From assembly GCA_003971905.1 (NCBI GenBank), contig RSEE01000072.1:248001-312000 (forward strand): 64,000 bases of DNA, written 5' to 3'. Shown here one piece after another: positions 3,651 through 60,742 of the stretch. A model generated the notes under the pieces. The model had not been told where the DNA came from. It saw only the letters and a program-made list of their open reading frames with translations, and did not search any database. Positions within the stretch are counted from its first letter, which is position 1, and each line of letters starts with the position of its first letter. The position numbers and the translations under genes were made by a program. The DNA is from Moniliella sp. 'wahieum'. Lineage: Eukaryota.

Positions 3651-3780
3651 TGAGATCTGAGATCTTATCCGGCTCAATAACTGAGGCCTGAGGCCAGTCA
3701 AGTCAACCTTGTGGGCCTCAGGCCTCAGGCCCCAGTGTCCTTACGTTCAGGGGGGCCGGTAAACGTTAAACGTTAAACGT
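3651..3780. repeat. Palindromic heptamer tracts (AGATCT-G)2, (AGGCCT-G/C)n, (AACGTT-A)3
   Basis: Read directly: agatctgagatct 3653-3665; ctgaggcctgaggcc 3681-3695; ggcctcaggcctcag 3714-3728; aacgttaaacgttaaacgt 3762-3780. Confidence 0.85.
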
Positions 3781-5207
3781 ACCCAGAGACCACACATAAT
3801 AATAGCCTTATTTCCCACAGCGCTGAGGCTCAGGAAAACGTATGTACTTAATGGATCATCGTCCTCATCGATCCTCGATCATCGGTCCTCAGGCCTCACA
3901 TCAGCGCATCGGCATTGTACGAGTCGATCGATGGTTGATGGAGAGAGCGAGATGTCCATAGCCGAACTTAGTTGGTGTGGTATGTATACTCCCAGCAAGG
4001 TACGATGCTGTCGGCATCCACGATTCACGTGGTGGAGCATTTGCCGAGAAGCTTGGCGATCCACACCTTGCCCACCACCACAGGATAGAAGGGGAAGAAG
4101 CGAAAGCACAGCCGTCGTGCATCGCCTGGACGTCGTCTCTAACCATGTATCTTTCATGCAACGACATCACGTGTCACTTGCATCACATGCAACAGAGATT
4201 TTGTTACACTGCGGTAGGTTCCAGTTATGATACTTTTCAAGCCTGAGACTTGTGAATGTGAGGCCTGATGGTCTAAGATCTAATGCCTGGTGCCTTATAG
4301 CCTGGAGAGCCAGACTGCTATGCTACTTAGTAGCCTAGACTCCTACCAACTTTTTATCTTTTCTCTCTTCCCTTCCAAAAGGCTTCCAGAGCTGTGAACT
4401 GCATGTGAGCGTGTGAGCGACTGAGCGTCCGCTGCGCGAGCACGAACGATTTTGTTGCACAACATGTATCATCAGCAGGGGATCTGGATGACCATCCTGC
4501 ATCCCCCACACGGTCGAGGATAGGCTGATCTATATGCAGACAGAGGCTGAGCCGCTGTGGGGCTCCGAAGGGCTGACCGGTGAGCTCACTGGTGAGCGGC
4601 TGCTGCGCTCTGGTGGCGGGGGCCCACTTGGGGTGCGGCACTGGCGCTGTGCTGCGGCGTGGGTGGTCCCTCCCGAGCAGTGTGCTGGCGCGGCAGACAC
4701 GCGGGAGAGGCGCTGGGCCCCACGGGGCCAGCACTGCGCCAGCGGCATTATCGTAAGAGCCACTCGACCACCTTCTAAGTCCCAGTTCAGGCGTCAAGTT
4801 CACGCCGCCCACGCTCTCAGGTGCCGCCACACTGCCCAGGATGCAGGCCCGCGCTTGCGACACGCTCGGACACACCCGGACGCAGTGTGCTTTCTGGGCC
4901 CATCACCCATCCCCATCCCCAACCTGCATCTGCACCACAGCCACACACACTCTCTTCCCTCCCCCTACCCGCCGTCTGCTTCTTATATCCGCTGCTCTTC
5001 ACCTCGCTCCTCACGCCCCGTCCTTTTTGCTTCCAACCACCACCATCCGCGTCACCGGGTTCTCACGCTCATCACCTCCTTGCCTCCCAACCTTCCACCT
5101 TGTCAAGCTTCTCAAATCTCCCTCTATCTCACACGGCTCTCCACGGTTGCTGAGAACGTGTTATATAACCACACTTACCGCATCCTACCCCCATCTACTA
5201 GCCCATC

Positions 5208-7112
5208 ATGTACGTCACACGCCACGCACCCATCTCCCTCTCTCTCCTTTCCCTGATTTAGCTGCTTTCATGTTGACATGTCATCTCCCCGTTTGCTTTT
5301 TGGTTGACTTCTCTGTCAGGCATTTGTGTACGTGTGTGCCCTCTACTGCATCGACAATGCCTTCAGGTCTTCCGTTCTCCCTTTCAAACTTCTGACCCTG
5401 TCTCTGCCAAACAGACGGTGCAATCGTTTTCAACCAGGACCCCAATACGCGGCGCGTGCCGCTTCTGGCTGTGTGGGACCTTAACCCAATTAGCTGGGTT
5501 CGCCGTCAGGGTTTGCAGGCCCACATGATGGCCGAAGCCAAGGTACGCATTTTTCTTCCCCCATTTTTGCTACATCCTGTTGGCAGTTGGCTGTGTATGG
5601 CTAACGTGCCCCTTGCACCATAGGTACTGGCTGAGGAGACCAGCTACAACGACCAAGCACAAGTAGAGCAAGCCGACTACGTTGCCATTTCTTCCGGTCG
5701 ATCGAAGGAGGACGCACTGTGTGGGGTGGTTGTGACGGACTACGATTACCCACCTGAAGTGGCGATTGCGGTGCTCAACAAGATTCTGGAAGAAATGACG
5801 GTGAGTGTTCCCAAGGAGCGCTACCAGTCTCGGATCCTCGACTTGGCCGCCCACCACCCTGCCCTATTTCCCCGGTTCGGCTCAGTCAAGAAAGCAAAGT
5901 TCCGTCCTTTGATTCTGCTCAGGGGCCCCGAAAGGCCAGATCGGCATCGATGAGCCTATACTTGTGGCTGCGCTCGAGTTGCCTTCGTCCGTAGAATACC
6001 TGAGTCGGTACCAAGACGTACGTCAGGCTCAGCGTATGGCCGATGCCCAGTCCGGGAGCCGTGGAAAGGGGGGGAAGGCCTTCGGTATTCCAATGGATAA
6101 CTCTCCCAACAAAAAGCATACTTTCTTGGGATTGCGCCGCCAAAAGCGTGCCCAACCTCCAGTTTTTCACCCGATGGACCGGTCTGCTACGCTCAACATC
6201 CGCACTCTTCCACCTACGGAAAGCCGGACCATCTCGCCCGACTCCGCCGGCATCACAAAGATCCCTCCCGCTAAGGAGGACGCATTTTCCGTTCTTTCCC
6301 CAGGTATGCTCCGCGGCCACCCCGGTGCCTCAGTTGATACATCAACGGCGGAGGCGGAGCACACCATCACCCGCAAAAGCACGGTTGAGACGTTGCGGAA
6401 CTTTGACGAGACCTCGGCGACCGACGGACGTGCGACGCCAACGACTCTATCGACCCCACGGCGCAGCACTCTCCCCGCATCAGCTCTTGCGCCCAAGGGC
6501 GCCGAGCCAAGTCTCTCCCTCTCGGTTGATGCAACTGCTCCACCGCGCATCCGCAGCGCGACGGTTACTATGGGCAGCCGAGTACCAGCCCGTCCTGTTG
6601 GCTCGGACCTACAAACTCGCACTCGTCGTGAATCTACTGCGAGTCAGTCTCGTCGTCCTGCATCGCTCGCCGAGATGGATGGTGACGACGAAGTGCGTCA
6701 TGCATCTGTGCAGGCCAGTCTGAATGCAGTACGCGGCCTTAGTCGGAGCACAGTGTCCGTCAATTCCGACGAGGACGAAGAAACCGATATGGAAACCGAC
6801 ATTTCGTTCGGCGCCCGCACGCCCAGTCCCATGGCCAGCTTTGGTGCGGTCCGCGCCGCGCTTGCCCTCTCTCCCACCGTCGATCCCAAGCGCGCAAACA
6901 AGATCCGTGAGAGGAGCACTTGGAATCCCAACCCTGAAGTGATTGCACCTATGATTGTGGAAAAGCGGGTTGACTTTTTGCCCGAGGTGGCAGCGGAAGA
7001 TGAGGTGGAACCTTCTTCGGGTTCGGACAAGCTGCCGCATGAACTCTCCTTTCAAAGTACCGTCACGCTTGCACCTCAAGGGCCGTCGACACCACACCGT
7101 TCAACCTCATAA
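5208..7112 (+). CDS. Ykt6-like longin-domain protein with a long S/T/P-rich tail, no SNARE coil or CAAX
   Basis: Exons 5208-5209, 5320-5327, 5415-5542 and 5624 onward (donors gtacgt, gtacgt, gtacgc) splice to MHLYGAIVFNQDPNTRRVPLLAVWDLNPISWVRRQGLQAHMMAEAKVLAEETSYNDQAQVEQADYVA...CGVVVTDYDYPPEVAIAVLNKILEEM; after an indel near 5920 it continues EYLSRYQDVRQAQRM. Compare Ykt6 CGVLITDKEYP...LLNKILDE and YQDPxQAD. Confidence 0.72.
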
Positions 7113-8345: not shown

Positions 8346-10956
<2,611 letters not shown>

Positions 10957-11188
10957 ACCAGCGCTACCAACGACGACGCAATCATACTGCTAAGGAGGTG
11001 GAGTCATAGTAAATGTGCTCATGAACATAGCCAGATCTATTCGCCGGGGCTGCTTGGCGGGCAGGAATTAGCCGGCCCAACGGTGGCTCTGGTCTAGATG
11101 CCACTGGGCTATCTGTGCCCGCACCCGCGCCTGCTCGGCCGCAGGGATGCGCAACGCCCCAATTTCCTGTGGACTGGTTGAGGCGGGA

Positions 11189-19958: not shown

Positions 19959-20065
19959 CTAGTCGCTAGTCGCTAGTCACTAGTCACTAGTCACTAGTCA
20001 CTAGTTACTGGCACTTGTTACACGATGCACGATGGATGACACGTGCGCGTGACATGTGACATGCC
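19959..20065. repeat. Heptamer tract (CTAGTCR)7 followed by ACATGT-G-ACATG
   Basis: ctagtcgctagtcgctagtcactagtcactagtcactagtcactagt 19959-20005; gtgacatgtgacatg near 20049-20063. Confidence 0.9.
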
Positions 20066-20959
20066 AGGCTGTTCGCATGTTCCACTCGTCACGCGTCACA
20101 GTCATGCACCATGCGTCGGCGCGTCTGCGTTCAACACGTTCAACGCGCCAACGTTGAACCACACACTATGCTGTAGACGAGTAGGTGACAGCGGCGCATG
20201 ATTACAGTACCTCAACATGTGTGCTGCAACAGGCTGCGGCGTCTCCTCACAATTCAAACCAATGGAAACCCCTCTTGACTATAGTGATTGCACGCACGTT
20301 GGTCCGCGCATATCAGTCGTCGCGCATATAGCGTCGCGCATATAGCTTCCCAACAGAATCTTCTGCGCAAACAATATGGGAGAACGCCAATAAGCGGAAG
20401 TTGAACGACTGCGGTTCGGATCCGAGTTCGCCCTGGACAGCGCAAACCACCAGCCCCATCACTAGTCCTCACATCCATGCGACAATAGTCGCCTCTTGTC
20501 CAATGAGTCGGTAGCCACCGCGTGTGGCCTCCCACTTCAGAGTATCCTCTTCCTTGCGACGATAGCTGCCCCATTCACGTCTACCACATTCCGTTCTAGG
20601 TTGCCCGTGCGGCAACTGCCCCCGCTGTTCTCCCCTGTCCCCCTTTCTTCCTCTATCGAGTTTTCTTCTTAGTTCCTGTCTGTAAGCAAAAGTTCGCAGG
20701 TTTCCCCCACATAGACAAAGGGGAAACATGGTCTAGAACAATTCAGAAGGTCCAGCCAACCTGTTGGTGACTGTATGTGACCACGTGGGTCTGATCCCGG
20801 CACTGTTATTGTTCCGTTGCATTTCTCTCTTCTTCTCCCGAATGGATACGAATCTCTTTTGCGCTCTCGCGGTCCTGTTCACACCGCCGTTTTCTCTCGA
20901 CAGTACGGCATGCTCATTGGAGGCCGAGGCGTTAAACATGCAGTATTGGAGAAAGCATA

Positions 20960-21042
20960 GGACGGCTGGCGCAATGGTAGCGCGTCTGACTACGATTTAT
21001 TGTGTAATCAGGAGGTTGCAGGTTCGACCCCTGCGTCGTTCG
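20960..21042 (+). tRNA. tRNA-Arg(ACG) with 11-nt intron 20996-21006
   Basis: Acceptor stem GGACGGC/GTCGTTC, A-box TGGCGCAATGG, anticodon arm TCTGA-CT-ACG-A[intron]A-TCAGG, T arm GCAGG-TTCGACC-CCTGC, T5 terminator at 21062. Confidence 0.93.
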
Positions 21043-25418: not shown

Positions 25419-25689
25419 GGTGCTGGTGGTTGGTGGAGGAGAGCGGGGGCGGAAATGCGCCGATGACGCGGACGACGATGGACGGAAATTTTTTCAAGCG
25501 GAAGCGCTGGACCAGGAGGTCGGGCGGAATTGTAGTCTCCAAATAGAGCGGATTGGTGGGCTGCCCACGTCATCAAGCTATCACCGGTCAGTGGTCACAC
25601 AAACTTACAAAGGAGGACATGACACCGGCAAAATTCCGCTCTATACACGCGTACACCTCCATCTGACTCATCCGTTCGTTAGCATGCTT

Positions 25690-27070
25690 CCTCAGCGCCT
25701 CAGCGTCCCTTGAGCTTCAAGCTCGGCCTGACCGGCTGATCTTGAAGTTAAGCTTGAAGTCAAGCTTGCCCTCAGGGCCTTAGGTCCTAGGTCCTAGGCC
25801 TCAACCAGTCAGCGAGCTAAGGTTGAAGCTTGAAGCTGAAGCTGCAAGCTCTTCAAGGTTCCGCTGAACGTTCAAGTTCCAAATTTCAAACTTCAACCTA
25901 GCTTTAAGAGCTAGCTCCAAGCTCAAGCTTCCAGCTTCCAGTGACAAGTGGGGGAGTGGCAGTGATTGTGTGGCTCTGTGTGGCACCTGAAAGCGTGAGT
26001 AGGGCAGAGTGAGCGTGTGCGGCTGGGCCTCACGCTGAACTACGGAAGGCTAGAACCGGGGGAGTCATTAATCATTGGGCCAGGCGCCTGTCTCATACTT
26101 GCCTCCCTGCGGCAGGCGAGTGTTGGATGTGTTGAACTCGCGCACAGATCGAAAAAAGAAAGCAGTCCCCCAAAGTGACGCGTGACCGGCGTGACCCGTG
26201 CAGCTTAAGCTGGGCGCTGGCTCGAGTTGCTGGTTACCCTTAGGCCTTTTATTCCTGCCGTCCTTGTATGGCAGGGACACAGGCCACGGGGCTGGGCGAT
26301 GGAGGACATCCAGGCTCATGGGGAGCTAGTTGCCGCCCGACTGGGAATATCCCCAGCCGGCCTGGGCCTGGATCTGGGCCTGCGCGAGCGCTGAGTACTG
26401 ATTAATTATTGAGGAACTCCGGCGCCTGAGGGTCTGGGCCATTTTACTCGAATGAAATTCTGAAGTCGAACTCCCAAACTCTTGCATCGGCCATTGTGCA
26501 TTGCTCGATTGCCCCCGGTCTGACCGTGAACACGGAGTCAAGCTTCAAGCTTCAATCAAGCTTCAAGTCAAGTGAAGCGTCTCCTCAACAGTTGTCAGGT
26601 AATCGCGTGACGCGTGACGCGTGACGCCCCTATTGTCACATGTCAGTGCTCCACCTGCATGAGCAGTTTTCCTCCCGGGCCCAAATGAAACGTTTTGTCG
26701 CCCTCTAGCAGCTAGTGGCGCCCGAGTCGAGTCCTAGTCAAGCTTCAAGCTTCAAGCTTCAAGCAAGTACCCAATGAGGCCTCAGCGCCAGCGTAAGGCT
26801 CAGGGACGCGATGTGCATGTGATGTGTCGGCCATCACATATCACCACAGTATGGTGTTGAAGATTGCGAAAGATCGGAGAGATCGGTGCGTGGAGACCAA
26901 AGAGAGCTTGAAGCTTCAATTCCACTTGAAGCTTGAAGCTAGCTTGAAGCTTGACTAGTGACTGTCGCTTGTCTTGGTGACTTTTAAGCTTCAAAGCTAG
27001 TCGTTTCGCCTCAGATTCAGATTCCACCGACTGACTGAACTTTAGCTGAGCGCGCTGATCGAGCTGATCA
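25690..27070. repeat. Intergenic island dense in (AAGCTT-C/G)n, (ACGCGT-G)n and CCTAGG-T heptamer tracts
   Basis: ttgaagcttgaagct near 25823; tcaagcttcaagcttcaa 26538; cgcgtgacgcgtgacgcgtgacgc 26604-26627; tcaagcttcaagcttcaagcttcaagc 26738; cttgaagcttgaagctagcttgaagcttgactag 26925-26958. Confidence 0.88.
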
Positions 27071-29052: not shown

Positions 29053-29430
29053 CCGCTCTTACATCCGCGTCCGCGTTGGCAGACATATACACATGTACTC
29101 ACCATCCCCCTCCACCTTCCGCCCCTTTCCCCGCTTCCATTCCCCCCACCTGTCTTGGTACACGAGCCACGTCTGGTCCCTTCGGGCTCTCCGCTCTACT
29201 TGCATATAATCAACAGAATAGAGGACAATCAATCGCACGACATACAGAAGACCGGTGCAGTGGAAATGGCAGCTAATCCTTTATCTTCCCGCAAGAGATT
29301 TGGTCAGAATGTGCCGATCCCCATTATTAAAGCGTCAGGCATGTGGGTTTTGCTGAAAGGAAACGTGGCGCAGGTTTCGTGGGCCCCCTTCTCTGCTCCC
29401 ATAGTGACGAAGCAGCCCTTGATCGTCATT

Positions 29431-29695
29431 CAGTACTCAGTACTCAGTCAGGATCAACATGTAGTTAACTTTGTCTCTCCTTCGTTTTGAAGAGCGGACG
29501 CTGTCGACGTTGTCAACGTCGAGTTCAACGTGTTCAACACTTGAACTAGTCAAGCTCAGGCCCTGAGCCTCAGGCGCCAGGTCAATCGAGTGACTCTGCT
29601 GACCGGTGACTGATGACTGATGATCGATGATCGATGATCGATGGTCAATGATTGTCATCGATCATCGATCATCGACCACACATCATCGATCATCT
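29431..29695. repeat. Heptamer tracts (AGTACT-C)2 and (ATCGAT-G)3/(ATCGAT-C)n upstream of UTP7
   Basis: cagtactcagtactcagt 29431-29448; gatcgatgatcgatgatcgatg 29622-29643; catcgatcatcgatcatcg 29656-29674. Confidence 0.9.
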
Positions 29696-29848
29696 GTGAC
29701 AGCGTGGAGCCGCAAACGAGACATGGAGTGGCGGAACGCCTGCATTCCGCCCGCGTCCACCCCTCAAAACTTTTTTTGGCCCCAGCCGAGAGGACCGCGT
29801 TTTCTGCTGCATCATCTTTCACCCAGCGTTTTCTGTCGCTCCATCACC

Positions 29849-31710: not shown

Positions 31711-32373
31711 CCCTTGTACGATATCATTTCTCACCTTGCCCCCCCTTCCCCTTGGACCACGCAGTAGGTGCGGTAGGATTGGTACATGTAGACCTACCAT
31801 TCACCGGAAGATGAATTGCAAAAACGGGGTATGAGGTCCGACAAAGGAGCGGAGCACTGCCGATATGCCAACTGCGATAGTTTAGTGCTCCTCCTCAGCA
31901 ACCTCACCAACCAAAAACGACGGCCTCCTCTCTGGCACGGTTACCCCCGGGGGGTGACATGTGAAGGATGGCGGTCGCAACCAAACGGCGCGGGCCGGGC
32001 AGAGGGCACCCCGTTTGGGACGCTAGCCCAGCCGGTCTGCAGACTACGCTTACGTGAGGGTGACCCAGCGGTGGGGACACTGCACTAGGGTTGGGACACA
32101 CTGCTGTGGTGCGGGGCCCGGGCGAGGGACAGGCGTGTGACACATGGCATGTGACATGTGACAAGCGAGGACAGGTGCTGGGGCAGGCGCACGGGCAGTG
32201 TGGATGGGCAGCGCAGCCGCGTGATGGATGATCACCGATCACTGGCGGAGAGGCGAGGGTCGATGGATGGTCGTCTGATTGGTTGAGGCAGCGCGTGACC
32301 GCAGCCCCACCCCTTGGCGTCGCGAGGGCCGTTCGCTGTCCGTGTCCCCACCACCTTCTCGCCTCTGCCCGCC

Positions 32374-37776: not shown

Positions 37777-38070
37777 TCCGAGCGCGGTACCTGGACCTGG
37801 GCTGCTGGACCCCATCGGTCGTTGATCCTCATCCTCAACCGTCCCATTTTCCCTTGTATGGCTGCCCCTTTCTCGCCCCATATCCGCTCTGTCCGGACCT
37901 CTCTTCTCCCATTTTCGATGCATCGAGGAAGTGTCGATTGAACGGCCTTGGATTGCGCGCATTTTTCCCCCCCTTTCCCATTTCCCATCTCCTCACTCTC
38001 TCCTTTTTGCCCTTACCCAACCCACCATCCTGCCTACTGGCGTCATCGCTACATCCTATCCTTGTGGATC

Positions 38071-38104
38071 CTGCACCCTGCACCCTGCACCCTGCACCCT
38101 GCAC
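38071..38104. repeat. Heptamer microsatellite (CTGCACC)n, about 5 copies
   Basis: ctgcaccctgcaccctgcaccctgcaccctgcac. Confidence 0.9.
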
Positions 38105-39296
38105 TTACTTGACGTACTTTTTGCTCATCCCCCTTGTTCTTTATCTCATTGTCTTTGCCCGTTCTTTCTCCCCCGCCCGCACCCACGCCCGCACCGATCT
38201 GCCGCGTGTTACGTGCTCTGAGCTGCAGCGGCACAGACCGTACCCGAGAGGACCTAGTTTCCCGCTCCAAGGCCCCGCTGTTCCTTTTCCCTCTCGCATT
38301 CCTGTGGTTCTTGGTCTGCAAATGATTCCAGTGTTGAAACGTTGGACGAACGAATAGGCTTTGCCCTGCTCTCCTTTTCTTTCCTAGCTGTCGAGGGGTT
38401 CAACGTTCACATCGTCACGGCTCTCGCCAGACGCTGGACCCCCCAAGGGAAAGGACCTCGGGCCAGATCGCATGCTACGTGCCACTGGGAGGACAGGGTA
38501 GCACGCCTCGGGTGTGGGAGACCCTTTATCTTATATCTTTTCACCCCTGCAGAGTAGGTACGGTGCGATAGACAGGCGGATGTTCAGGAGAGGGTGGTAG
38601 AGGGCAATTAGTAGGAGGGAGAGACGTGGCTGGCGCCTACAGTTACTACTACCCAGTGTTGACATCCGTCCTAGGACCGCGCGGACCCTGAGTCACGTGA
38701 GTCAGTTTTCATTCCTTCCGAGCTCGCACCAGTCTTCTGGACAAGTCAGTCGCAGAAGCTTCTTAGTGCAATACGACGTTCAGTGCTCACATTCTGTGGT
38801 AGTAGCGTGGCCGACACCCAGCTGGTGCGCCTCCGACAGCGGCCAGACACCTGTCACGCGTCACGATACAGTTCAAATGGCCCACAGAGATCCAAGTGGG
38901 GCACAAAAGGCATCATTCAGTAGGGGAGGTACTAAGGTCATTAATCATTGGTGCCCCGTCTTTGGTTAAGCTGGCCCGGCTGGAAGAACAACCAGAACGG
39001 GAAGGGCACTCTCACGTGCTCGTCACGGCCGCATTGCCCTGACGGTGCTACCCTCAGGCCTAAGGCCTTTGGTCCATCCTGTCATGTGCTCAAAGTAGCG
39101 GGGGGAGCAACGTTTACAACTACGCTACTATTCTCCAACAGCTGTTTTGCTGTCTGTAGACCTACATGCGACCTATTTGCCTGGCGCGGAAACCTACCAA
39201 CCAGTACGCGCACTTCACCAGCTTGAACCGGCAAGCCAACATCCGATACATGTACATACACTCTCGACCATGCCTCCTCTGATCCCAGATCCCCAC

Positions 39297-44236: not shown

Positions 44237-46230
44237 ATGGCCCACCTTGTCCCTCGCGCCCTCGCCCTTGCCCGGCCCTGCGTCTCGGCTGCGTCCCGCC
44301 TCGCGCCGACGCCGGGGGGCTCGGTGCGCCGCCTGTCGTCCTTCTACAACGCCTCGGTCGCTGGCCTCACTGCTGACCAGGCCGAACTGCGTGAAGCAGT
44401 CTTTCCTTTGCCCGGGCCGAGCTCGAGCCGCGGGCGCAGGAAATTGACCAGACCAATACCAGCCCAATGGACTTGTGGCCACGGATGGGCGAGCTGGGCT
44501 TGCTGGGATCACGGTGCCTGAAGAACAGGGCGGTACGGGACGAAGCTACTTTGATCACCTGCTCATCATGGAAGAGTACGATCCTGATCCTGATCCTGAC
44601 TCTGCTCCTGACCAGGAAGATGACGATATATAAGAGTGTCTGACCATCTCGTGCCACAGAGCTCTCCCGGGCCTCGGGATCGCTCGCGCTGAGCTATGGC
44701 GCCCACTCGAACTTGTGTCAACCAGATCAACCGCCACGGCACCCCCGAGCAAAAGGCCAAGTACCTTCCCGACCTCATCTCCGGTGTCAAGGTGGGTGCC
44801 TTGGCCATGTCCGAACCGGGAGCCGGCAGCGACGTGGTCAGCATGAAAACAACCGCCATCAAAAAGGGAGACCGATACATTAATGGCAACAAGTTCGGTA
44901 CGTTTGCGCCGGTTCCCCCCCCCCCCCCCGTTGCCTTTTCGCTGCTTCTATAGAATGTGGTTCGTCTGTACTGATCCATCTCCGTTTGCATTTCGTTCTT
45001 GAAGGATCACGAATGGCCCCGTTGCCTCCACTTTTGTCATTGTGCGTATCCTGTCCAGCTGCGAGGAAAGATGGAGGTTGCAAAGCACGCAAAAAGACTG
45101 GTTCTCTTGCTGGCCTTTTCTCTGCGCAGTACGCCAAAACATCGCCCACCAAAGGCTCCAAGGGCATCACGGCGTTCATTGTCGAGCGCAGCTGGAAGGG
45201 CTTTTCCACCCACCAGAAACTCGACAAGGTCGGCATGCGTGGTTCCGACACGTGCGAACTGGTCTTTGACAATGTCGAGATCCCCGAGGAGAATGTGCTG
45301 GTCAAGTGGACCGCGGCGCGGCAGTGCTCATGTCGGGCTTGGACTTGGAGCGCCTCGTTCTCTCGGGCGGTCCATTGGGGTAGGTCTCCCGTCTTCCGCT
45401 TCGTTTCCCCCCTCGTATTCAGAGCCGGTCGCTAATGCCTTTTTCTAGTCTCATGCAGGCAGCTTTCGATTACGCAGTGGACTATGTTCACCAGCGCGAA
45501 CAGTTTGGCCAACGCATCGGCGAGTTTCAGCTGATGCAGGGCAAGGTTGCTGGTAGGTATTCTTTCCTCTCCTCTCCTCTCCTCTCCTCTCCTCTCCTCT
45601 CCTCTCCTCTCCTCTCCTCTCCTCTCCTCTCCTCTCCTCTCCTCTCCTCTCCTCTCCTCTCCTCTCCCCTCTCCTCTCCTCCTCCTCTCCTCTCCCTCCC
45701 TCCTCTCCTCTCCTCTCCTCTCCTCTCCTCTCCTCTCCTCTCCTCCATATGCTGTGCCCGTTTCGCGAAGCTGACCTGAACAACGACAGACATGTACACC
45801 AAGCTCGGGGCCGCTCGTTCGTACGTGTACGCTGTTGCGAGGGCCTGTGATGCTGGCCAGATCAGTCGTCGTGTATGTATTGTCTCTCCAACCTGTCCAA
45901 CCGATCACCTCTTGACTGACCAATTGGGACGATGGCAGGACTGTGCGGGGGCCATTCTCTATTCCTCGGATCGGGCCGTGGAGGTGACGATGGATGCAAT
46001 GCAGTGCCTGGGTGGCAACGGATACATTAATGGTATGTGGATTTGCGCTATCCTGTCGTACCCCACCAGAAAAGAGATCCGTCAGACTGACCTTCTCGAT
46101 CGCTCTGTGGCATGCAGAGTATCCAACCGGTCGTTTCTTGCGCGACGCTCGCCTGTACACCGTCGGGGCTGGGACCCAGGAAATCCGGCGCATGCTGATC
46201 GGCCGTGAGTTCAACCAAGACTTTGCTTGA
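44237..46230 (+). CDS. IVD: Mitochondrial isovaleryl-CoA dehydrogenase; multi-exon
   Basis: [100 protein letters not shown]. Confidence 0.93.
45565..45746. repeat. (TCTCC)n pentanucleotide microsatellite of about 180 bp inside IVD intron 45553-45789
   Basis: Pure pyrimidine run read directly; donor gtaggt at 45553, acceptor cag at 45789. Confidence 0.97.
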
Positions 46231-46540: not shown

Positions 46541-46636
46541 CGACAACGACAGGACTCGAACCTGTGCAGGCAAAGCCTAATTGATGGTGCAAACAAGCGT
46601 TCGAATCAATCCCCTTAACCACTCGGGCACGTTGCC
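46541..46636 (-). tRNA. tRNA-Ser(CGA) with 14-nt intron 46586-46599
   Basis: Reverse complement: GGCAACG/CGTTGTC acceptor, CCCGAGTGGTTAAGGGG D arm, ATTGA-TT-CGA-A[intron]A-TCAAT, long variable arm AGGC-TTT-GCCT, ACAGG-TTCGAGT-CCTGT. Confidence 0.94.
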
Positions 46637-48255: not shown

Positions 48256-48582
48256 TCCGGTTCGGTTGATCGCCTGGCCCTACCTGGTACCTATACTACT
48301 GCTTCAGCGGCGCGCACCGCGAACGCGCCAACTAATGCATTCATGCTCCTCAATGCATATTGCTCCTTGCCATGCTGCGCGTCTGCCATCATTACATTAT
48401 CAAGCCCATGGGGCGCGGAAGGCTACACCCTAGGCTCGTGTGCCACCATCGCTTCGCGGCAGCATATGCAGCGTGCTATTGCACCCGTAGCACCCCTCGA
48501 GGTGGGATGAGCGATGATCGATGAAGCGAGTTGGGGAGGCGAGGCGGGGGGGGGCAGAACACTTGGTTCGATCCCAGCTGTA

Positions 48583-48611
48583 GACGTGAGACGTGAGACG
48601 TGAGACGTGAG
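48583..48611. repeat. Heptamer microsatellite (ACGTGAG)4
   Basis: agacgtgagacgtgagacgtgagacgtgag. Confidence 0.9.
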
Positions 48612-50708: not shown

Positions 50709-51185
50709 GGCGCAGGAGAGTGGTGGGAGCGCAAAACGCAAGGCGAAGCAGTTCAGAAGGGCGGGTGCGAGGCGAGGTGGCTTGGGGCAGCGGCGGAGTG
50801 GAGCGGGGCGCTCTGGCGCTCACTGTGAAGCGTGAGGGGCTGCGGGCGGCGTTGGACGTGACGCTTCAAGCGGCGCTCCGGAAGAGGAGATCGGAGACGA
50901 GGTGACCAGCCTCGCGAGGGAAGTGAACGTTCAACGTTCAACCCGAGGGGCGACCGGTGAGCGCAGCGACAGGTGAGGTGTGGAGGTGACGTGTGACTGA
51001 CGCCGCAGGGAGCAGGGCACGGGCGGGCACGGCGGCAGCCTGGGCCACAACAAATGGGAGACATGCTGGCGCGGCCGGGGGGAAGCGAAGGCTGAGCGCT
51101 GGCTGCGGCCTCGCGTGGGTTCTGTGGGCCGCATCCGCAGGGTTGGCCTTCATTCGCCGAGGGCCGAGGGCCGAGGTAAGCGGCG

Positions 51186-51243
51186 ACTAGTAACTAGCAA
51201 CCAGCAACCAGCAACCAGCAACCAGCAACCAGCAACCACTAGC
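51186..51243. repeat. Heptamer tract ACTAGT-A grading into (ACCAGCA)n
   Basis: gactagtaactagcaaccagcaaccagcaaccagcaaccagcaaccagcaaccactagc. Confidence 0.88.
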
Positions 51244-51642
51244 TCGTGGCTGCCGCCTGCTGCCGCTGCCGCAATTTGAAATGGCAAGCGGGTGCGCCAC
51301 GTCTCAACCGCAGCGCTCGCACCGATCGCACTCGGGTGCTTCATTTCCTTGGCAGCCACATGGCTTGTGGTCAGTTGCATGTTACACTCAGTACTCAGTA
51401 CCCTCCGTTGCGTACTCACTTACTCATCCCCTCCCGCCCCGTCCCACCTGCCGAAACACGCCGCCCCCCGCCCCACCAAACACCCGTGTCACATGTCGCT
51501 ATCACGTTGTCCAGGCCTGGCTCACAACTTCATATTATAAGCCTCTGCAACACCAAAACAAAAGGAACAGGTGCGTTTTGTTTTCTGGGCTGCCACCTTC
51601 TTTCACTGCCAATGCACCACGTCTCCCGGCCCCCGCAAAAAG

Positions 51643-51737
51643 TGCTTCAAAGGGGAATCGAACCCCTGTCACATCGATACGTCCTGGACTCTACCGTCCT
51701 ATGGCAACGATGTAGTATACCACTAACCCATTGAAGC
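51643..51737 (-). tRNA. tRNA-Gly(GCC) with 24-nt intron 51678-51701
   Basis: Reverse complement: GCTTCAA/TTGAAGC acceptor, CATCG-TT-GCC-A[intron]T-CGATG, AGGGG-TTCGATT-CCCCT, T5 terminator immediately 3'. Confidence 0.92.
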
Positions 51738-54700
51738 CGACGTTCCGTCTCCCTGGGACACCTACTCCACTAGGCCCAATGGAAGTTGCCCCTTCTCTGT
51801 AAAAAGACCGAGGAAGAACCGTAAGGCCAAGTGAGATGAGTGATGGAGCCCACAGGCCACATGAGTTTGCAAACGAATCAGCGCAACTTGCATTCGTAAT
51901 TGGTGTGGCGCCAACAAAAGCAGCACACAGCCGGATGAGCAAAAGCCTCTGTTTAGTAGTTCTTGTGTCCAATCCTTTTAAATGAAGCTTTGGGAATGGT
52001 ATGTCGGATGCAGCAATTCATTGCGTAGTGGGCGGTTTGGGCCATCACAATTGGATCTAAGAACAGGCAGGTTTTATAGACGAGAAGGGGAACAAAGGCA
52101 ACGCCAACAAGTCTACAGAAAAAAGGGGAAACGAGTCAGGGGAAGAAGTGAGGACCAAGCACCGAGATTCACACGGGGTGAGAAACGAGGCGAGGGTGAA
52201 GGACAAAACGGACCCGAGACGAGAAACGAGGCGAGAAACCGAGTCGAAACCATATTTGGACTTTAGACGAGCGCGAGCGGAGAAGAGACGATTGTTGTGG
52301 GTTTTGTACATATAGGCCGAGGATCCGAGTCATGATAACGAGAGATAGCGAAAGAAGAGAACTTGAGTAGCGATATAGGGAGAGAGCTGAGAAGCGAGAG
52401 TGACGATAGACTTTATCATCACCGCGTGAAAATAAGCAGCTCTGATGACGAGGGAGAGATCCGTACTCCCTATGGGCTGATGCCACACACAAGAACATTC
52501 ATTGCCCTTAACTTCCGTTCGGTGTATACCAACAAAAGTGTGTTTTCTATACCTCCCTGTCTTTTCATCCCGCTGTCAAAGCTCCATAGCGGCCTGCACG
52601 CTCTGCTGGCTGTGTGCGCAGTTACCATTCATATAATGGAAAGCCGCTGAAGACAGTCGTACAGAGGATTCCTTTTTTGCCCTAGACTCTATGCTGCTGG
52701 GGAGTTTTGGCCGGCCTCATGGTCCGTTTCCGAGATACTATCACCGTCACTTCTCATAGCGAGTTAGAATGAAGAAGATATCAAAAGGGCACGGTCTCTG
52801 CTGCTCAGATTCTGCAGCGATTGTGCTTGCCACAACTGCATCGATGGCAGTAGATGGAATACTATCACTGGCTGATTTTAGCACCAGCCTTCTTACCCCC
52901 CCTTTCCTATACCACCACGGCCATCGGGGCTTATAAATGTTGGTACTACGGGCACGTTTTTCGCTACCTCGCCCCAACGAGCTGATTGATCCACGTCAAG
53001 TGTCCCATTATATGTCCGTCGACGCACCTGAACAACTACATTGCTTGCATCCTGTACGAACGCGGCATCCCCTTCACCCATCTCGTCGCCCATTCGCCAC
53101 CGTGAGCCCCAGTTCCACCATGGCTGTGGCTGAGCGAAACTATACGGATAGTCTGGCCACCCTCCGTCTACGAGCACTGGATGGTACGAGTGTGGTTGCC
53201 GCCCCTGGTGAACAATTCCATGGCTATAGCTCTCTCTCTCGTCATCGGCGCGGCACAGCTTTGATATGTGGACGAGATGAAAGCCACGGTTCCAGGTTTT
53301 TTAAGCGCGCCCAGGCGGGCCTATGAGCAGGGCAAGGCAGTGCAGCCGATCCGATGGGGCAACGAGGAACGAACGCCTCATATATGGCGACAAGACCATC
53401 ATCCATCTGAATATGGTTTCAAGTGTAGGGAGATCGCTACAGATCGATCGGCTTCTACGCAGATATGTCGCTACTACCAAGTCTGTTCTTTAGTCCAACT
53501 GTCATATGGGAAGAATTGCGAGTTAGAAAAATAGTCCAATACGTATGCAAAAGGCGATGTCGAACAAATATAGTGTCGGTAAACAAGATGGGCAGCCGGG
53601 AAACAGGTGAGCATGCATCGGATGTGATGCCGCATGCGTTCCAGGTGTTGGTGAGCCGAGTAAAAGAGATGTACAGAGGAACAGGGAAAGAGGATCTTGG
53701 CGTCATTGATGCTCTGAAAAAGTTGGTCATGTGGGGGATAGTTTTTAGGGAGGGGGAAGAAAAGGTCTCTGAGGAGTACATCAACCGACATCCTGTTCGC
53801 CACGATGGCAAGCCGATGCCTATATCCATCACGTGCGATAGGGATAGTAAGTTCTGAAGAGGAGAAACTGGAGCCCTTCTCATGGGGAACAACGTTGAAG
53901 CATAGGTCCACCATCAAGATTGGTACAGTAAGATGCTGGACTAGAGTGGAAAACCCTATACCGAGGGTAAAACTTGAGTACGAGTCATGATACAACGCGG
54001 AGAGGAGCAAACAGTAAGAGATTCAGAGTGATGGGTGCAGCCACACGACCATCTTTTCTGTTGCAGTCGCTGCTATCTGCGCCATCGACACACCGCGCCA
54101 AGATGAGCAGGATTAAAAGCCAAAGGCGAGCCAGAGCAAGACGCAGTGCCAAGGAGGCGGCGGTAGAGAAAGGAAATGGGCTGGACACCAGCCATGACGT
54201 GGTGAACACAGAGGCGGGCGGGTGGTGGTGATGGTGGTGAGAGGGAATGAGGCTGGTGTGTATGTACCAGAGAGGGTCCGCGCTTCCCTTGGGAGATATT
54301 GAGAGTAGGTTTCGTGTGCGCGCGAACGGATGGGGAGCAAAAGAGAGGGGGAGGGAGTAACCCACATTTTGCCACAGATAAAGGTGATGAACTGCAATGG
54401 TAGTTCCCACAGGGCGGCACCACGCCCATACTAAAGGAGCTGGCATGAATGCACTGATCACGGACAAACAAGCAAAAATGTGCGGATGCTGCTCTCTCAG
54501 CCTTACTGTTTGATGCTCCGATTGGCCACACTCCATACCACCATTAGCGGTGATGCAGATGGCGTGGGGCAGGGTATATGTGTCCACTATGTGCCCATTT
54601 TTGGAGGCGAAGAGGCACAGATGGCAATGCTATCTGAGAATAGAGTTGAACGTTGCTGAGGGACCGGCCGAGGAGTGCCTTTACACAGCAGCAAAAATAT

Positions 54701-55151
54701 AGTCGTGTTGTACATTCACGTCATTAATTGTCTCGGCACCACACCACACCGCGGGGCGCAAGATGGCCTGTATCTGGCCAAAGTGATGTTGCCTCGTGGC
54801 AGCGTCTGCATTGATACATGAACAGATTGTGCCACAAACCCGGTATCGTAGAAAATTATGTTATTTCTGGGCTTCTCCCTGTGTGGTGCCAAACGGAACA
54901 GCAACACACAACAGTCTGTCTTGTGGCAGCAGTGGCGGAGAGAGACGGATGAGAGATGCGAGTGATGGATGAGTGCCGTAAGCGTACGTGTTCCCGTCAA
55001 AGCATGGCAGGTGGCGGCAAACATGAAAGTTTCCGCAGCGGAATGCTGTTGTTTACTTTTTTTCTCTTCGCCAGCTCTTACAGCTTTAAGCTTTAACCCT
55101 TTTCACCGTCTCTCCTCCTCTCTCCCCCTCGACAACTGTTCCAGCTTTACG

Positions 55152-57914: not shown

Positions 57915-60313
57915 ATGGCCAGCATGCTCAAGGGCTTCTGGCCCTCCGGCCCCAGCGACCAGATGACGCCGCGTGCCTCCGCCATCAACGAGCAGCGCAA
58001 CCCCTTCGACGCATCCGCCGCCGCCGCCACCCCGTCCGCCAGCGCCGCCGCTGCTGCTGTCGCCGCTGCCGCCACCGGCCAGAGCCCCTCGCCCAGCTCC
58101 TCCCGCCACAGCAGCGGCGCCGCCACCCCCCATGTCCACCCCCCCTCTGCCGCCTCCTCCCGTCCCTCCAGCACCCTCTCGACCCGCATCGTGCCCAACG
58201 GCCTCATGCCCTCGGGCCTCCGCACCCCCGGCGGTGTCGCAACCCAGGCCACCGTGCCCACCACTCCCTCAGCACTGCCCCGCCCGAATTCGACATCCTC
58301 ATGCCCCAGCGCTCCAAGGAGGCTGACCTGGCTCCCTCGGGCCCCCCCCCCTCCCACCCCCCTCGGCCACGGGCCCCTCGCTTTGTCTGCTCCTACCGCT
58401 TCCCCCACCCCCCCGTCTCCAGCAGGCGTCCCCCCAGCGGTCGACGTCGGTGTCGGTGTCGGTGTCGGCGTTGGCGTTGGCGTTGCTCCCCCTGCTGCGT
58501 CGGGCAAGACACGGAGCACGTCTGCACCCAAGGGCCAATTGACGGTGACCATCCTCGGCGCACGCAACTTGCCGGGCACTGGCCCCGACAGTCGTCCCTA
58601 TGCAGTGGTGAGCTTTGACAAGAATGAGTTTGTTGGAAGGGAGCCAATCAATGCTCCTGGCCATGCACCTCTTGCTCCACCCTCGTGGGCAGGCGAGGAG
58701 CGAATGGTGCTGGACCAGACCGACCAGGGCTTTGACCCCGTGTGGGAGGACAAGGTGACGTTTGATGTGACCTACGAAGGCCCCAAAGTGTTCATCTCGG
58801 TCTATGATCGCCAAGCTGAGGACGAGGGCTTTTTGGGCATGCGCGACATTACGCCTGTTCTCCGCGAACATTCCCCGAGCGAGCAATGGTACCCGCTGAT
58901 CGGCCGTGAATTTTCCCCTGCTGGGGCCTCGATCCCTGTTGAAGGTCCCAGCACCACGCGAGGGGAGATTCTTGTCAAGCTTTGGTACGAGCGTCGTCCC
59001 CAGCGCAAACTCACCCCGCGTGATTTCGAGTACATGAAGCTCATTGGGCGTGGCACGTTTGGGCGCGTGTTCCAAGTGCGCAAGAAGGACACGCGTCGTA
59101 TCTACGCGATGAAGGTGCTCAACAAGCGTGAGATTGCCCTGAAGAAGGAGGTAGTGCACACGATGGGCGAACGCAAGATTCTTGAAAAGTCGCTCGACTG
59201 TCCTTTCCTCGTCGGACTCAAGTTCTCGTTCCAGTCGGAGACGGAACTGTTTTTTGTGACGGACTACAAGTCGGGAGGGGAGCTGTTCTGGCACCTGCAA
59301 CGCGAGGGCCGCTTTACGGAAGAACGGGCCAAGTTCTACATTGCTGAGCTGGTGCTCGCCCTCGAACATTTGCACAAGTTTAACATTGTTTACCGCGACC
59401 TGAAGCCCGAGAATATTCTTCTCGACGCCATGGGACACGTTGCGCTTTGCGACTTTGGGCTGTCCAAGCCCGACCTGGGCAATGGCCAGCTCACTTCCAC
59501 CTTCTGCGGCACAACGGAGTACCTTGCGCCGGAGGTACTGCTCGACGAGTCGGGCTACTCCAAGCTGGTCGACTTTTGGAGTCTGGGCGTGTAAGTCAAC
59601 CTATCTATCTATTTTTTGGATGAGAGAATGATGGACGGGAACTGACTTTGATTGGGTTGATAAGACTTCTGTTTGAAATGTGCTGCGGCTGGTCTCCCTT
59701 CTATGCCGAAGACACGCAGCAAATGTACCGCAACATTTGCTTTGGCAAAATCAAGTTCCCACGGGGCGCGATTGGGGACGATGGCAAGCAGTTTGTCAAG
59801 GGCCTGCTCAACCGTAACCCCAAGCACCGTCTTGGAGCCTCGCACGACGCGCAAGACCTCAAGGAACATCCTTTCTTCAAGACGATCGACTGGGATTTGT
59901 TGGCGAGCAAAAAGATCCCGCCTCCGTTCAAGCCGTTGGTCGAGTCGGAAGAGTCGGTGGCCAACTTTGACCCCGAGTTTACCGAGACGGACCTGCGGAG
60001 CGTCGTGCGGGGCGAGAAGAATGGCGGGGTGGGCTTGGCGGACGATGCGCAGCTGGGCGGCCACGCACCGCAAGAGGAAGACGACGAGGTTCTCTCCTCC
60101 TCGATCCAGCACCAGTTCTCTGGTTTCTCCTACTCGGGACGCGGCGACGACTGGATGGGCGCCTCGCTCAGCGCACGCTCCCGCCGCGGCTCCAACGGCC
60201 TCGCCTCGTCCATCGCCTCCCGCAGCGGCGGCAGCCTGTCCATGTCACGCGTCGACCACGATGGACTGGCACGGGGCGAGCGGGACATGAGTCTCGATCC
60301 GCCGGATGCGTGA
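57915..60313 (+). CDS. SCH9: AGC kinase Sch9 with C2 domain; intron 59591-59664
   Basis: C2 region (KGQLTVTILGARNL...PYAVVSFDKNEF), LIGRGTFGRVFQVRKKDTRRIYAMKVL, GELFWHLQREGRF, TSTFCGTTEYLAPEVLLDE, FEMCCGWSPFYAED, hydrophobic motif FSGFSY. Confidence 0.96.
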
Positions 60314-60403
60314 GCGGGAGCGTCAGCGGCAGCGTCAGCGGCAGCGGCAGCGCGAGCGGCGCGAGACGCCCATGCTCGCTTGGATTGCGCGTCGCGCGGA
60401 TCT

Positions 60404-60742
60404 TGAGTACTGAGTATTGAGTACTGAGTGTTGAATCTTGCTATTGCCATTGATCCTGAGTGGCCTGAGCACTCAGCTGAGTTGACTTGAGCACTCGGAC
60501 TGAGTTGTGATGCCGCCCCCCCCCCCCATCCACATGGACTCTGTTGTATCTCATTCTCATGTCGAATGTGCCAGCGTCCCGCGTTGCTTGCTTCCCGCGC
60601 TGCCTGCTGTGTGCTGGGCGCGGTCATTGCTACGGGTTTTGTTTCCACATGATCTGATCCGCGCTGCTCGGCACGGCTGTGCCGAGTGCTGAGTTGGGCT
60701 GAGCTGGGCTGAGCTGGGCTGAGCTGCGTGCTGAGGCTGAGT
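60404..60742. repeat. TGAG-rich tracts: (AGTACT-G)-type heptamers and a (GCTGAGCTGG) decamer repeat
   Basis: tgagtactgagtattgagtactgagtgttga 60404-60434; gctgagttgggctgagctgggctgagctgggctgagctg 60688-60726. Confidence 0.8.

Follow-up and report, generated by a model that had tools for sequence, protein, structure and literature searches.

Introduction

Hairpins on the flanking DNA are formed by hAT, MULE and Transib transposons and by RAG (PMC5499845). For Ac/Ds, P-nucleotide footprints have been found in the fungi Saccharomyces cerevisiae and Candida albicans as well as in plants, and their accepted cause is the off-centre opening of flank hairpins, followed by end joining; in 128 revertants from one Ds donor site, 28 footprint types were found, of which two predominated (PMC5873905). 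Pso2, a fungal relative of Artemis, is cited within the same source as a candidate hairpin opener. Artemis:DNA-PKcs opens hairpins mainly at the +2 position, giving dominant 4-nt palindromic 3' overhangs (PMC2175297). Target duplications of 7 bp are reported for the hAT7 families of basidiomycete rusts, and of 2-5 bp for the CACTA/Transib (CMCT) clade (PMC12730594).

Here we describe a family of heptamer units in a window of 64,000 nt, the whole stretch of fungal DNA that was analysed. In the canonical Tc1/mariner footprint, two copies of TA enclose a few bases left from each terminus of the element. The units described here have the same layout of duplication, short palindrome and duplication, but the Tc1/mariner palindrome is fixed by the element termini, whereas here it is of 12 kinds and follows the flank. 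With Ac/Ds footprints they share a retained target duplication and a short palindromic insert templated by the break-side flank. Ac/Ds, however, makes an 8-bp duplication and many footprints per site, whereas here a +7 product with a 2-nt inverted copy dominates, the putative scars recur in tandem as arrays, and no element is visible. The overhang left by Artemis:DNA-PKcs at V(D)J coding ends has the exact size and symmetry of the filler observed here (PMC2175297), although that enzyme pair is a vertebrate one, its substrates are programmed RAG breaks, and P nucleotides are lost from most coding joints. The hAT7 families match in their basidiomycete host, in their 7-bp duplication (putative here) and in belonging to a superfamily known to form flank hairpins, but the passages on hAT7 in that source describe neither a TNA-centred target nor footprints (PMC12730594). 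Like ordinary microsatellites, the units form tandem arrays of 2-5 copies in non-coding DNA; unlike them, they obey one rule for the choice of unit, mostly consist of a single extra unit and end in fixed registers.

Results

One design rule for the heptamer units

Among perfect tandem runs of at least two copies, which numbered 84 for period 6, 41 for period 7, 7 for period 8 and 6 for period 9, the 7-bp period is prominent. A 6-bp palindrome plus one base makes up 23 of the 41 period-7 runs, against a baseline of 10.4% of all primitive heptamers, and 22 of these 23 are of the form A-N4-T, the exception being CCTAGG-T at 25781. A sequence-only reading had proposed that unrelated loci carry different palindromic cores in one common frame; this observation is confirmed, and every array it listed is present, at or a few bases from where it was placed. 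Its frame (A-N4-T plus a spacer base) and the frame used here (TNA plus a 4-nt palindrome) describe the same arrays, the latter more naturally.

In the TNA frame the rule is that two identical TNAs enclose a 4-nt palindrome. Such like-N links occur 63 times, against 1.57 ± 1.41 in 40 shuffles. With any middle bases, TNA-palindrome-TNA occurs 77 times, against 6.15 ± 2.43 (maximum 14) in 100 dinucleotide-preserving shuffles, which bears out the expected enrichment over such a control; in the same shuffles, TNA-N4-TNA with a non-palindromic filler is not in excess (101 versus 91.6 ± 10). The two TNAs have like middle bases in 63 of the 77 links and unlike ones in 14. By spacer base, the like-N links divide into C 33, G 25, A 3 and T 2. 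Twelve distinct palindromes serve as filler, leaving the TNA as the sole constant part; GCGC is absent, where 5.9 would be expected from the flank dinucleotides.

These counts demonstrate the sequence rule, and its geometry is equally strict. Between identical TNAs, palindromic fillers of 0 nt (24 versus 29.6) and 2 nt (3 versus 6.8) show no excess, and those of 6 nt number 3 versus 0.38 (40 shuffles each). Units of palindrome plus one base with other periods stay at chance (period 5, 6 versus 5.6; period 9, 0 versus 0; 100 shuffles). The share of palindromic fillers is 43% for the outer pair T.A and 0.8-7%, with no excess, for the other 15 pairs. The links form 60 chains (loci) with 120 ends, and 46 of the 60 chains are single links, each equivalent to one +7 event. 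Plain 7-bp duplications without inversion are rare (6 versus 0.17 in shuffles), and TNA-P4-P4-TNA, the product predicted if both overhangs were kept, occurs once (0.15 in shuffles).

The loci are distributed along the window as follows.

3651-3780: four arrays in one spacer, TGA-GATC twice (3651-3667; AGATCT-G, 3651-3665), TGA-GGCC twice (3682-3695; AGGCCT, 3681-3695), GGCC-TCA twice (3714-3731) and TAA-ACGT three times (3760-3780)
3889-4283: single +7 links TCA-GGCC-TCA (3889), TGA-GGCC-TGA (4259) and TAA-GATC-TAA (4274)
8348-8471: CCGG cluster directly upstream of a Myb/Cef1 ORF, with TCA-CCGG-TGA, a mixed chain, TGA-CCGG-TGA and TCA-CCGG twice (ACCGGT, 8382-8471)
19959-20108: CTAG-TCG in 2.8 copies running into four TCA-CTAG and a TTA (ACTAGT-C, 19973-20005); TGA-CATG twice (20049-20063); TCA-CGCG-TCA (20089)
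25573-27062: densest region, 22 links, 12 of them AGCT, in ORF-free DNA from the eIF1A ORF (minus strand) to the next plus-strand ORF
25717-25843, 26538-26567, 26738-26764, 26905-26961 and 26984: TCA-AGCT and TGA-AGCT arrays of the densest region
26392, 26604-26627 and 26934: further members of the densest region, respectively TGA-GTAC-TGA-TTAA-TTA, TGA-CGCG three times, and the sole TNA-P4-P4-TNA
29430-29448: TCA-GTAC in 2.7 copies, ending exactly after TCA and GT
29600-29700: three TGA-TCGA head-to-head with three TCA-TCGA, plus one more link (ATCGAT, 29619-29675)
31955-32163: two TGA-CATG-TGA loci upstream of 14-3-3 ORFs (ACATGT-G, 32148-32163)
38400-39067: single links TCA-ACGT-TCA, TCA-CGCG-TCA, TCA-TTAA-TCA and TCA-GGCC-TAA-GGCC (AGGCCT, 39054-39067)
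50924-50942: TGA-ACGT-TCA-ACGT-TCA-AC (AACGTT, 50926-50942)
51386-51401: TCA-GTAC twice
55082-55096: TTA-AGCT twice, among the few arrays with A or T as middle base
60404-60427: TGA-GTAC-TGA-GTAt-TGA-GTAC-TGA-GT, a decaying array downstream of C2/kinase ORFs

The single links at 3889-4283 have GGCC and GATC in common with the arrays 200-600 bp away. The mixed chain of the CCGG cluster reads TGA-CTAG-TGA-CCGG-TGA-CCGG, and both of its outer flanks template their palindrome. The head-to-head pair at 29600-29700 forms a near-palindrome of 101 nt, for which single-strand DNA folding gives −30.6 kcal/mol (z −3.5).

The filler copies the neighbouring bases

In 51 of the 63 like-N links, the filler consists of the two bases beside a TNA together with their complement. 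The templating bases lie in the right flank for 37 links and in the left flank for 32, whereas shuffles give about 0.1 of either kind, and mixed-palindrome chains (n = 3) behave as a hairpin origin would predict, with five of six outer flanks templating the adjacent palindrome. At the 120 chain ends, the sequence extends the unit by 0, 1, 2, 3, 4, 5 or 6 nt in 45, 25, 26, 6, 16, 1 and 1 cases, respectively; the third base beyond a 2-nt extension matches in just 3 of 17 cases, and arrays end in three registers only (0, 2 and 4). These data demonstrate templating by the flank as well as a direct duplication of the TNA.

The product can also be read as a 5-nt direct repeat, TNAxy, with two inverted nucleotides, which occurs 69 times versus 0.28 in shuffles. 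Among the possible lengths of the inverted copy only two (P2, 69) is strongly enriched, with P1 at 8 versus 1.1, P0 at 8 versus 3.6 and no P3 to P5. Read in this way, the two inverted bases are copied from the xy side in 69 cases; the TN side is their source in a single case, at the chance level of 0.45. This fits a symmetric 7-bp target. Two hallmarks of the excision footprints of hairpin-forming transposons are present, namely a direct target duplication (63 of 77 links) and flank-templated palindromic nucleotides (51 of 63); their usual footprint spectrum of variable P length and small deletions was not found, a single P2 outcome being dominant. An extended Hermes scheme of double inversion, in which the flank would be nicked 2 nt inward, was rejected, its product occurring once (0.12 in shuffles).

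Thirteen like-N chains lack a flank match at either end, which a decay of about 10% per site could explain; GGCC and CCGG are the most frequent palindromes among unflanked chains.

Distribution relative to genes and local clustering

Only five of the 60 loci lie in ORFs of at least 200 aa, although such ORFs occupy 57% of the window; the loci thus avoid ORFs. On a rough reading, the loci are mostly found in ORF-free DNA adjoining the 5' ends of ORFs; placement at promoters versus terminators is equally rough, because the gene maps based on GC3 and on codon usage are too weak.

Identical palindromes cluster. At distances of 100-1500 bp, 43 of 174 pairs share their palindrome, against 16.2 ± 3.9, a value reached by none of 2000 permutations. 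Each intergenic region thus prefers its own palindrome, and the hairpin-scar model does not yet account for this, since clustering of identical palindromes within a spacer is not predicted by flank templating alone. Unflanked chains in the window share the local palindrome in 10 of 20 cases (8.6 expected), which gives no signal.

Search for an element and for relatives

No transposase was detected by Pfam among 150 of the 270 ORFs of at least 110 aa, namely those starting in 1-37,042, which yielded host genes only, as did the 16 long ORFs analysed in the same way. A search of the window for terminal inverted repeat pairs with a flanking 7-bp duplication gave none that was convincing, the three weak candidates each having four mismatches in 16. 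The CTCACTG motif, a candidate element end, occurs 6 + 5 times in the window, without an inverted-repeat partner, and no paralogous segments able to capture an event were found there.

The best named match of one window protein is from Tilletiaria anomala (46% identity), and the fungus analysed here is only distantly related to Ustilago maydis. ATTCACG/ATTCGTG heptamer tracts, which the sequence-only reading attributed to U. maydis intergenic DNA, were not found described in a full-text literature search, nor did such a search return a published description of the TNA-palindrome-TNA pattern.

Discussion

The results of the shuffle, outer-pair and geometry tests support a single generating mechanism, rather than a single binding motif or repeat family. 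Three such mechanisms had been suggested beforehand, and an excision footprint composed of a target duplication, a palindromic 4-nt filler and the second duplication fits best, to which we add that the flank supplies the template for 51 of 63 fillers. The heptamer units are probably, if by no means certainly, scars from the excision of a cut-and-paste DNA transposon, or from a nuclease with the same chemistry, located outside the window. Several observations count against this reading: neither a transposase (ORFs starting in 1-37,042) nor a terminal inverted repeat pair with a 7-bp duplication was detected in the window, one outcome dominates where known hairpin footprints are heterogeneous, 13 like-N chains lack a flank match, identical palindromes cluster within a spacer, and GCGC is missing.

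We infer a course of events comprising transposition, hairpin formation, opening at +2 and joining in register. The element would enter a symmetric 7-bp target, NN-TNA-NN, in which the middle base is preferably C or G, and the target would be duplicated. Upon excision, both flanks would be closed by hairpins precisely where the element had ended, and a host nuclease would open these hairpins 2 nt 3' of the tip. An opened flank would then be duplex up to ...TNA, and its last two bases, followed by their complement, would form a self-complementary 4-nt 3' overhang. Joining of the two ends in register, with one of the two overhangs outliving replication or repair, would give ab-TNA-cd.d'c'-TNA-cd or ab-TNA-b'a'.ab-TNA-cd, exactly +7 bp in either case. 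The TNA of such a scar would have perfectly symmetric surroundings, and excision there would yield two identical overhangs able to anneal to each other. Arrays could thus grow by identical units through renewed visits and, later, through slippage. The choice of a palindrome specific to each spacer would need a further step, for example donor-flank bases carried along by a locally hopping element. That a hairpin-forming transposase or a derived nuclease is still active, repeatedly cutting NN-TNA-NN in promoter DNA so that the scars reinforce themselves, is an extension of the model that we regard as doubtful.

Other readings share part of this evidence. An element with a 5-bp duplication TNANN (Transib-, RAG- or hAT5-like), leaving the same type of scar with two P nucleotides from one hairpinned flank only, is unlikely, even though the product has the form of a 5-nt direct repeat with two inverted nucleotides (69 versus 0.28) and Transib and RAG do form flank hairpins (PMC5499845). 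Two equivalent hairpinned flanks should both donate P nucleotides, and the 69 to 1 bias to the xy end does not agree with this. An asymmetric target is also unusual for a symmetric transposase dimer. In footprints of Tc1/mariner style, a 3-bp TNA duplication would surround two terminal bases from each inverted element end. The palindrome would then arise automatically, element variants would supply different palindromes and local hopping would repeat one of them per spacer, which accounts for identical palindromes lying close together and for the 13 like-N chains without a flank match; the predominance of GGCC and CCGG in unflanked chains also speaks for it. We nevertheless give this origin little chance: at least 12 terminal-dinucleotide variants would be needed for the 12 palindromes, one-sided 2-nt fillers are not in excess (3 versus 6.8), and neither the predictability of 51 of 63 fillers from neighbouring bases nor the sharp stop of arrays after TNA plus two bases is expected of a filler borne by an element.

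A mobile element might be dispensed with altogether, if quasi-palindromic heptamers expand preferentially as hairpin-prone microsatellites or through fold-back template switching in replication. The arrays are indeed foldable (−5.3 and −5.6 kcal/mol for arrays of 33 and 27 nt, −30.6 kcal/mol for the head-to-head pair), growth beyond two copies may be due to slippage, and three copies of TCAAGCT are found in at least 121 metagenome contigs (28-63% GC), which means that arrays of this kind can form widely. These contigs, many and unrelated, contain ordinary arrays; several different palindromes occur in only two of them, and there is no enrichment of other palindromes (41 palindromic versus 539 non-palindromic fillers, 7.1%). 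Their arrays end in all seven registers, in a set biased by the search pattern, whereas those in the window end in three; the free unit sequence and arbitrary end register of slippage-born microsatellites are not seen in the window arrays. Hairpin stability, moreover, needs no T..A, yet only T.A is enriched, and at 46 of the 60 loci there is just one +7 event. If the unit were copied by fold-back, the middle base of the TNA would be inverted; with 63 like and 14 unlike pairs the copy is direct rather than inverted, which disfavours pure fold-back template switching, another of the earlier suggestions. An origin without an element is improbable. A host nuclease, transposon-independent or domesticated, might cut NN-TNA-NN in open promoter DNA so that the ends become hairpins, and the scars would be by-products of this activity. 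Such an origin would draw on the same sequence evidence as transposon excision, and the presence of 60 loci in 64 kb, yet no element there (among ORFs from 1-37,042 and in the search for terminal inverted repeats), favours it. We know of no such fungal enzyme, and consider this origin hardly probable. The third suggestion, tandem cis-regulatory sites selected for proteins that read TSA-N4-TSA spacing, is in keeping with the roughly mapped position of the loci, mostly ORF-free and next to ORF 5' ends, and some units, such as ACGCGT, resemble known fungal promoter motifs. It is very improbable, as a spacing-reading protein gives no account of a palindromic filler of any sequence that copies the neighbouring bases: the 12 cores have no conserved part in common, most fillers (51 of 63) follow the flank, and TNA-N4-TNA with a non-palindromic N4 is at background (101 versus 91.6).

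If the heptamer units are excision scars as proposed, the genome would be a natural record of many hairpin-mediated excisions that underwent one stereotyped repair, from which the target preference, the hairpin-opening position and the joining rule of a fungal end-joining pathway could be read without experiment. It would also provide a concrete route from transposon traffic to heptamer microsatellites and to new gene-adjacent sequence, and the flank-templated TNA-palindrome-TNA signature could reveal past element activity in other genomes after the element has been lost. Should the activity be ongoing and self-reinforcing, it would represent a new, enzyme-driven birth of tandem repeats, with 7-bp arrays being written into promoters.

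Sequence rule of the heptamer arrays

All of the heptamer arrays listed in the sequence-only reading, which described them as A-NNNN-T palindromes followed by one spacer base, were found in the window. Counting perfect tandem runs with two or more copies gives 84 for period 6, 41 for period 7, 7 for period 8 and 6 for period 9. Of the period-7 runs, 23 are made up of a 6-bp palindrome and one further base, a form taken by 10.4% of all primitive heptamers; 22 of these 23 have the proposed A-NNNN-T frame, with ten different cores. The same arrays are more naturally framed as TNA plus a 4-nt palindrome (P4, the filler). Here, a TNA-P4-TNA unit is termed a link, a like-N link if both triplets have the same middle base, and a locus of one or more consecutive links is a chain.

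The window contains 77 links, compared with 6.15 ± 2.43 in 100 dinucleotide-preserving shuffles; TNA pairs around a non-palindromic filler are not in excess in the same shuffles (101 versus 91.6 ± 10), and palindrome-plus-one repeats at other periods are flat (period 5, 6 versus 5.6; period 9, 0 versus 0). T..A is alone among the 16 outer pairs in being special, its fillers being palindromic in 43% of cases, versus 0.8–7% for the other pairs. The middle base is equal in both triplets in 63 of the 77 links (CC 33, GG 25, AA 3, TT 2). C and G are over-represented at this position, with 49 chains pure C/G, 4 pure A/T and 7 mixed; as a baseline, TCA or TGA make up 72% of the TNA triplets found outside the arrays in DNA free of ORFs. 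As P4, the window uses twelve of the 16 possible palindromes; GCGC is unused, with 5.9 uses expected from flanking dinucleotides. The intergenic location previously noted holds for most loci: ORFs of at least 200 aa span 57% of the window and contain 5 of the 60 loci. The pattern is real, highly non-random and rule-governed; a full-text literature search found no description of it in print.

Structure of links and chains

Identical-TNA pairs around palindromic fillers of different length were compared with 40 shuffles. Fillers of 4 nt are strongly enriched (63 versus 1.57 ± 1.41) and those of 6 nt occur three times (0.38 expected), with no excess for 0 nt (24 versus 29.6) or 2 nt (3 versus 6.8). 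Single links make up 46 of the 60 chains into which the 77 links fall; 12 chains have two links, one has three and one has four. A typical locus thus carries one extra 7-base unit rather than a long array.

Flank templating, in which P4 consists of the two bases beside a TNA followed by their complement, applies to 51 of the 63 like-N links. The right flank serves in 37 links and the left in 32 (about 0.1 each in shuffles); a flank match is absent in thirteen like-N chains. Inverted copies of 1 nt are also found (8 versus 1.1 expected), while copies longer than 2 nt are absent. In the three mixed-palindrome chains, five of the six outer flanks template the adjacent palindrome. Beyond the 120 chain ends, the repeat continues for 0, 1, 2, 3, 4, 5 or 6 bases in 45, 25, 26, 6, 16, 1 and 1 cases, respectively, so that arrays terminate after TNA, TNA+2 or TNA+P4; after a two-base extension, a match at the next base is no commoner than chance (3 of 17 cases). 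If the units are instead read as a 5-nt duplication with two inverted bases, the non-TNA end supplies these in 69 cases and the TNA end in one (chance 0.45). Near-miss fillers are in excess (51 versus 29), compatible with an estimated decay of about 10% per site, which may account for the chains lacking a flank match.

Identical palindromes cluster within spacers. Among 174 chain pairs 100–1500 bp apart, 43 have the same P4. Label permutation gives 16.2 ± 3.9, and none of 2000 permutations reaches 43; with the AGCT region left out, 14 of 53 pairs match where 4.8 are expected (1 of 2000).

Spacers with same-palindrome clusters
3.07–4.26 kb, GGCC
8.35–8.46 kb, CCGG
25.7–27.0 kb, AGCT
29.6 kb, TCGA

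Such clustering is not expected from flank templating by itself; one element hopping locally, a seed motif in local excess or old arrays breaking up could each produce it.

Genomic context and individual loci

The window is eukaryotic, with a GC content of about 60% and long exons. Its Pfam domains include protein kinases, a Myb/Cef1 splicing factor, eIF1A, 14-3-3, dynamin, SurE, WD40/BING4 and F-box/LRR. For the SurE-like ORF, the closest named match is Tilletiaria anomala (46% identity; one contig matches at 70%), which, as judged from this protein, places the source fungus in the smut lineage (Ustilaginomycotina). Rfam identifies three tRNA genes, long enough to hold introns; heptamer arrays lie about 850 bp from the first and about 240 bp from the third.

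tRNA genes
20960–21042, 83 nt
46541–46636, 96 nt
51643–51737, 95 nt

The largest simple repeat of the window, a (TCCTC)x36 pentanucleotide microsatellite at 45565–45745 (95% matches), falls outside the heptamer rule. A 1.7-kb ORF-free block at 51732–53457, with the lowest GC content of the window (about 50%), has no links; spacers of comparable size do carry them. Some perfect heptamer arrays depart from the TNA+P4 form.

Heptamer arrays outside the TNA+P4 form
38070–38104, (CCTGCAC)x5, TGCA beside a non-TNA triplet
48582–48611, (AGACGTG)x4.3, ACGT beside a non-TNA triplet
51156–51176, (GCCGAGG)x3, GGCC beside a non-TNA triplet
51196–51238, (AACCAGC)x6.7

A 4-nt palindrome is present in 10 of the 18 period-7 runs that are not palindrome-plus-one, compared with roughly 36% expected.

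Seven links with complementary middle bases, such as TGA-CATG-TCA, are perfect 10-bp palindromes (at 5274, 8348, 23875, 25865, 26775 and others; an estimated 1.5 or so expected). They may be junctions of opposite-sense events or reflect a longer inverted copy. At 29600–29700, head-to-head TGA-TCGA and TCA-TCGA arrays make up a 101-nt near-palindrome about 230 bp upstream of the WD40/BING4 ORFs; with a predicted folding energy of −30.6 kcal/mol (z −3.5), it could form a cruciform. At 19959–20005, a (CTAG-TCG) array adjoins a (CTAG-TCA) array. The one-base TNA variant is itself copied 2.8 times, suggesting that slippage or copying also works on existing units. The TGA-CGCG array at 26604–26627 makes three ACGCGT hexamers spaced 7 bp apart; we take ACGCGT to be the MluI cell-cycle box of yeasts, and a scar array may therefore have made a promoter motif here.

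Proposed mechanism

The reading that explains the heptamer units best is that they are, probably although far from certainly, stereotyped scars of transposon excision from which the arrays were seeded. The direct TNA duplication, together with the short inverted copy of the two adjacent bases, points to break ends passing through hairpins, of which this pairing is a hallmark, and the 69-to-1 asymmetry of the inverted bases favours a symmetric 7-bp target. From the observed rule and templating we infer an element, hairpins, their opening at +2 and joining. The insertion target would be a symmetric 7-bp site, ab-TNA-cd, duplicated upon insertion. At excision, a hairpin would seal each flank at the element boundary; opening 2 nt 3' of the tip would leave duplex ends at TNA, each bearing a 4-nt self-complementary 3' overhang, cd.d'c' for one flank and b'a'.ab for the other. 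In-register joining, with one of the two overhang sequences surviving, would produce ab-TNA-cdd'c'-TNA-cd or ab-TNA-b'a'ab-TNA-cd, always +7 bp. Such a scheme would entail a palindrome of constant 4-nt length, a middle base that does not change, nearly equal templating by the two flanks, the one-sidedness in the 5-bp reading and the TNA+2 ends. Each scar would also give one TNA completely symmetric surroundings, in which both overhangs would have the same sequence and be cohesive; further events would then add identical units.

Flanking DNA is described as being hairpinned by hAT, MULE, Transib and RAG (PMC5499845). In Candida albicans and budding yeast, the footprints of Ac/Ds contain P nucleotides, and Pso2, a relative of Artemis, has been implicated there (PMC5873905), and Artemis:DNA-PKcs is reported to open hairpins mainly at +2, giving predominantly 4-nt palindromic 3' overhangs (PMC2175297). 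Rust fungi have hAT families with 7-bp duplications (PMC12730594). Hairpin footprints in print vary widely, one Ds donor site having given 28 kinds (PMC5873905), which counts against the excision reading, since a single outcome dominates in the window.

Pfam searches of 150 of the 270 ORFs of at least 110 aa, those starting at or before 37,042, revealed no transposase. The window contains neither a terminal inverted repeat pair with a 7-bp duplication nor a paralogous segment, hence no ancestral state is visible, and the candidate element-end motif CTCACTG was negative in it.

Alternative explanations

Slippage or fold-back copying, the latter raised as template switching in the sequence-only reading, would make arrays without any element, but is improbable because only T..A is enriched, most loci are single events, chain ends fall in fixed registers and the middle base stays the same. 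As single strands, the arrays also fold weakly (−5.3 and −5.6 kcal/mol), with the head-to-head TCGA arrays as a strongly folding exception. Real DNA selected for (TCAAGCT)x3 (at least 121 metagenome contigs, 28–63% GC, 457.6 kb) served as a control. It is not enriched in other palindromes, like-N fillers being palindromic in 41 cases versus 539 non-palindromic (7.1%), and it has 5.7 palindromic links per 64 kb versus 63 in the window; array ends fall in all seven registers in this set, which is biased by the search pattern.

Footprints of the Tc1/mariner type, with a filler derived from the element's termini, would account for the unflanked class and the palindrome clustering; we consider them no likelier than slippage, as they fail on the 12 different fillers, the templating and the TNA+2 ends. 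Least probable of all is maintenance by binding-site selection, including the suggested protein reading TSA-N4-TSA spacing, which leaves unexplained why a palindrome of arbitrary sequence is copied from the flank. The excision footprint, also among the earlier suggestions as a target-site duplication on either side of a palindromic 4-nt filler, fits best through the direct TNA duplication and flank templating, and is the reading towards which we lean.

Two unrelated contigs of the metagenome scan carry several different TNA-P4-TNA palindromes. One, L063 (37.6 kb, GC 53%), has ORFs fragmented in a eukaryote-like manner, with AAA_11 helicase domains; the other, L067, is 1.37 kb long (GC 49%). 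One of them holds TAA-CCGG x2, TGA-GATC and TGA-AGCT arrays and the other TTA-CGCG x2, TAA-CGCG and TTA-GGCC; both may therefore derive from organisms in which the process also operates.
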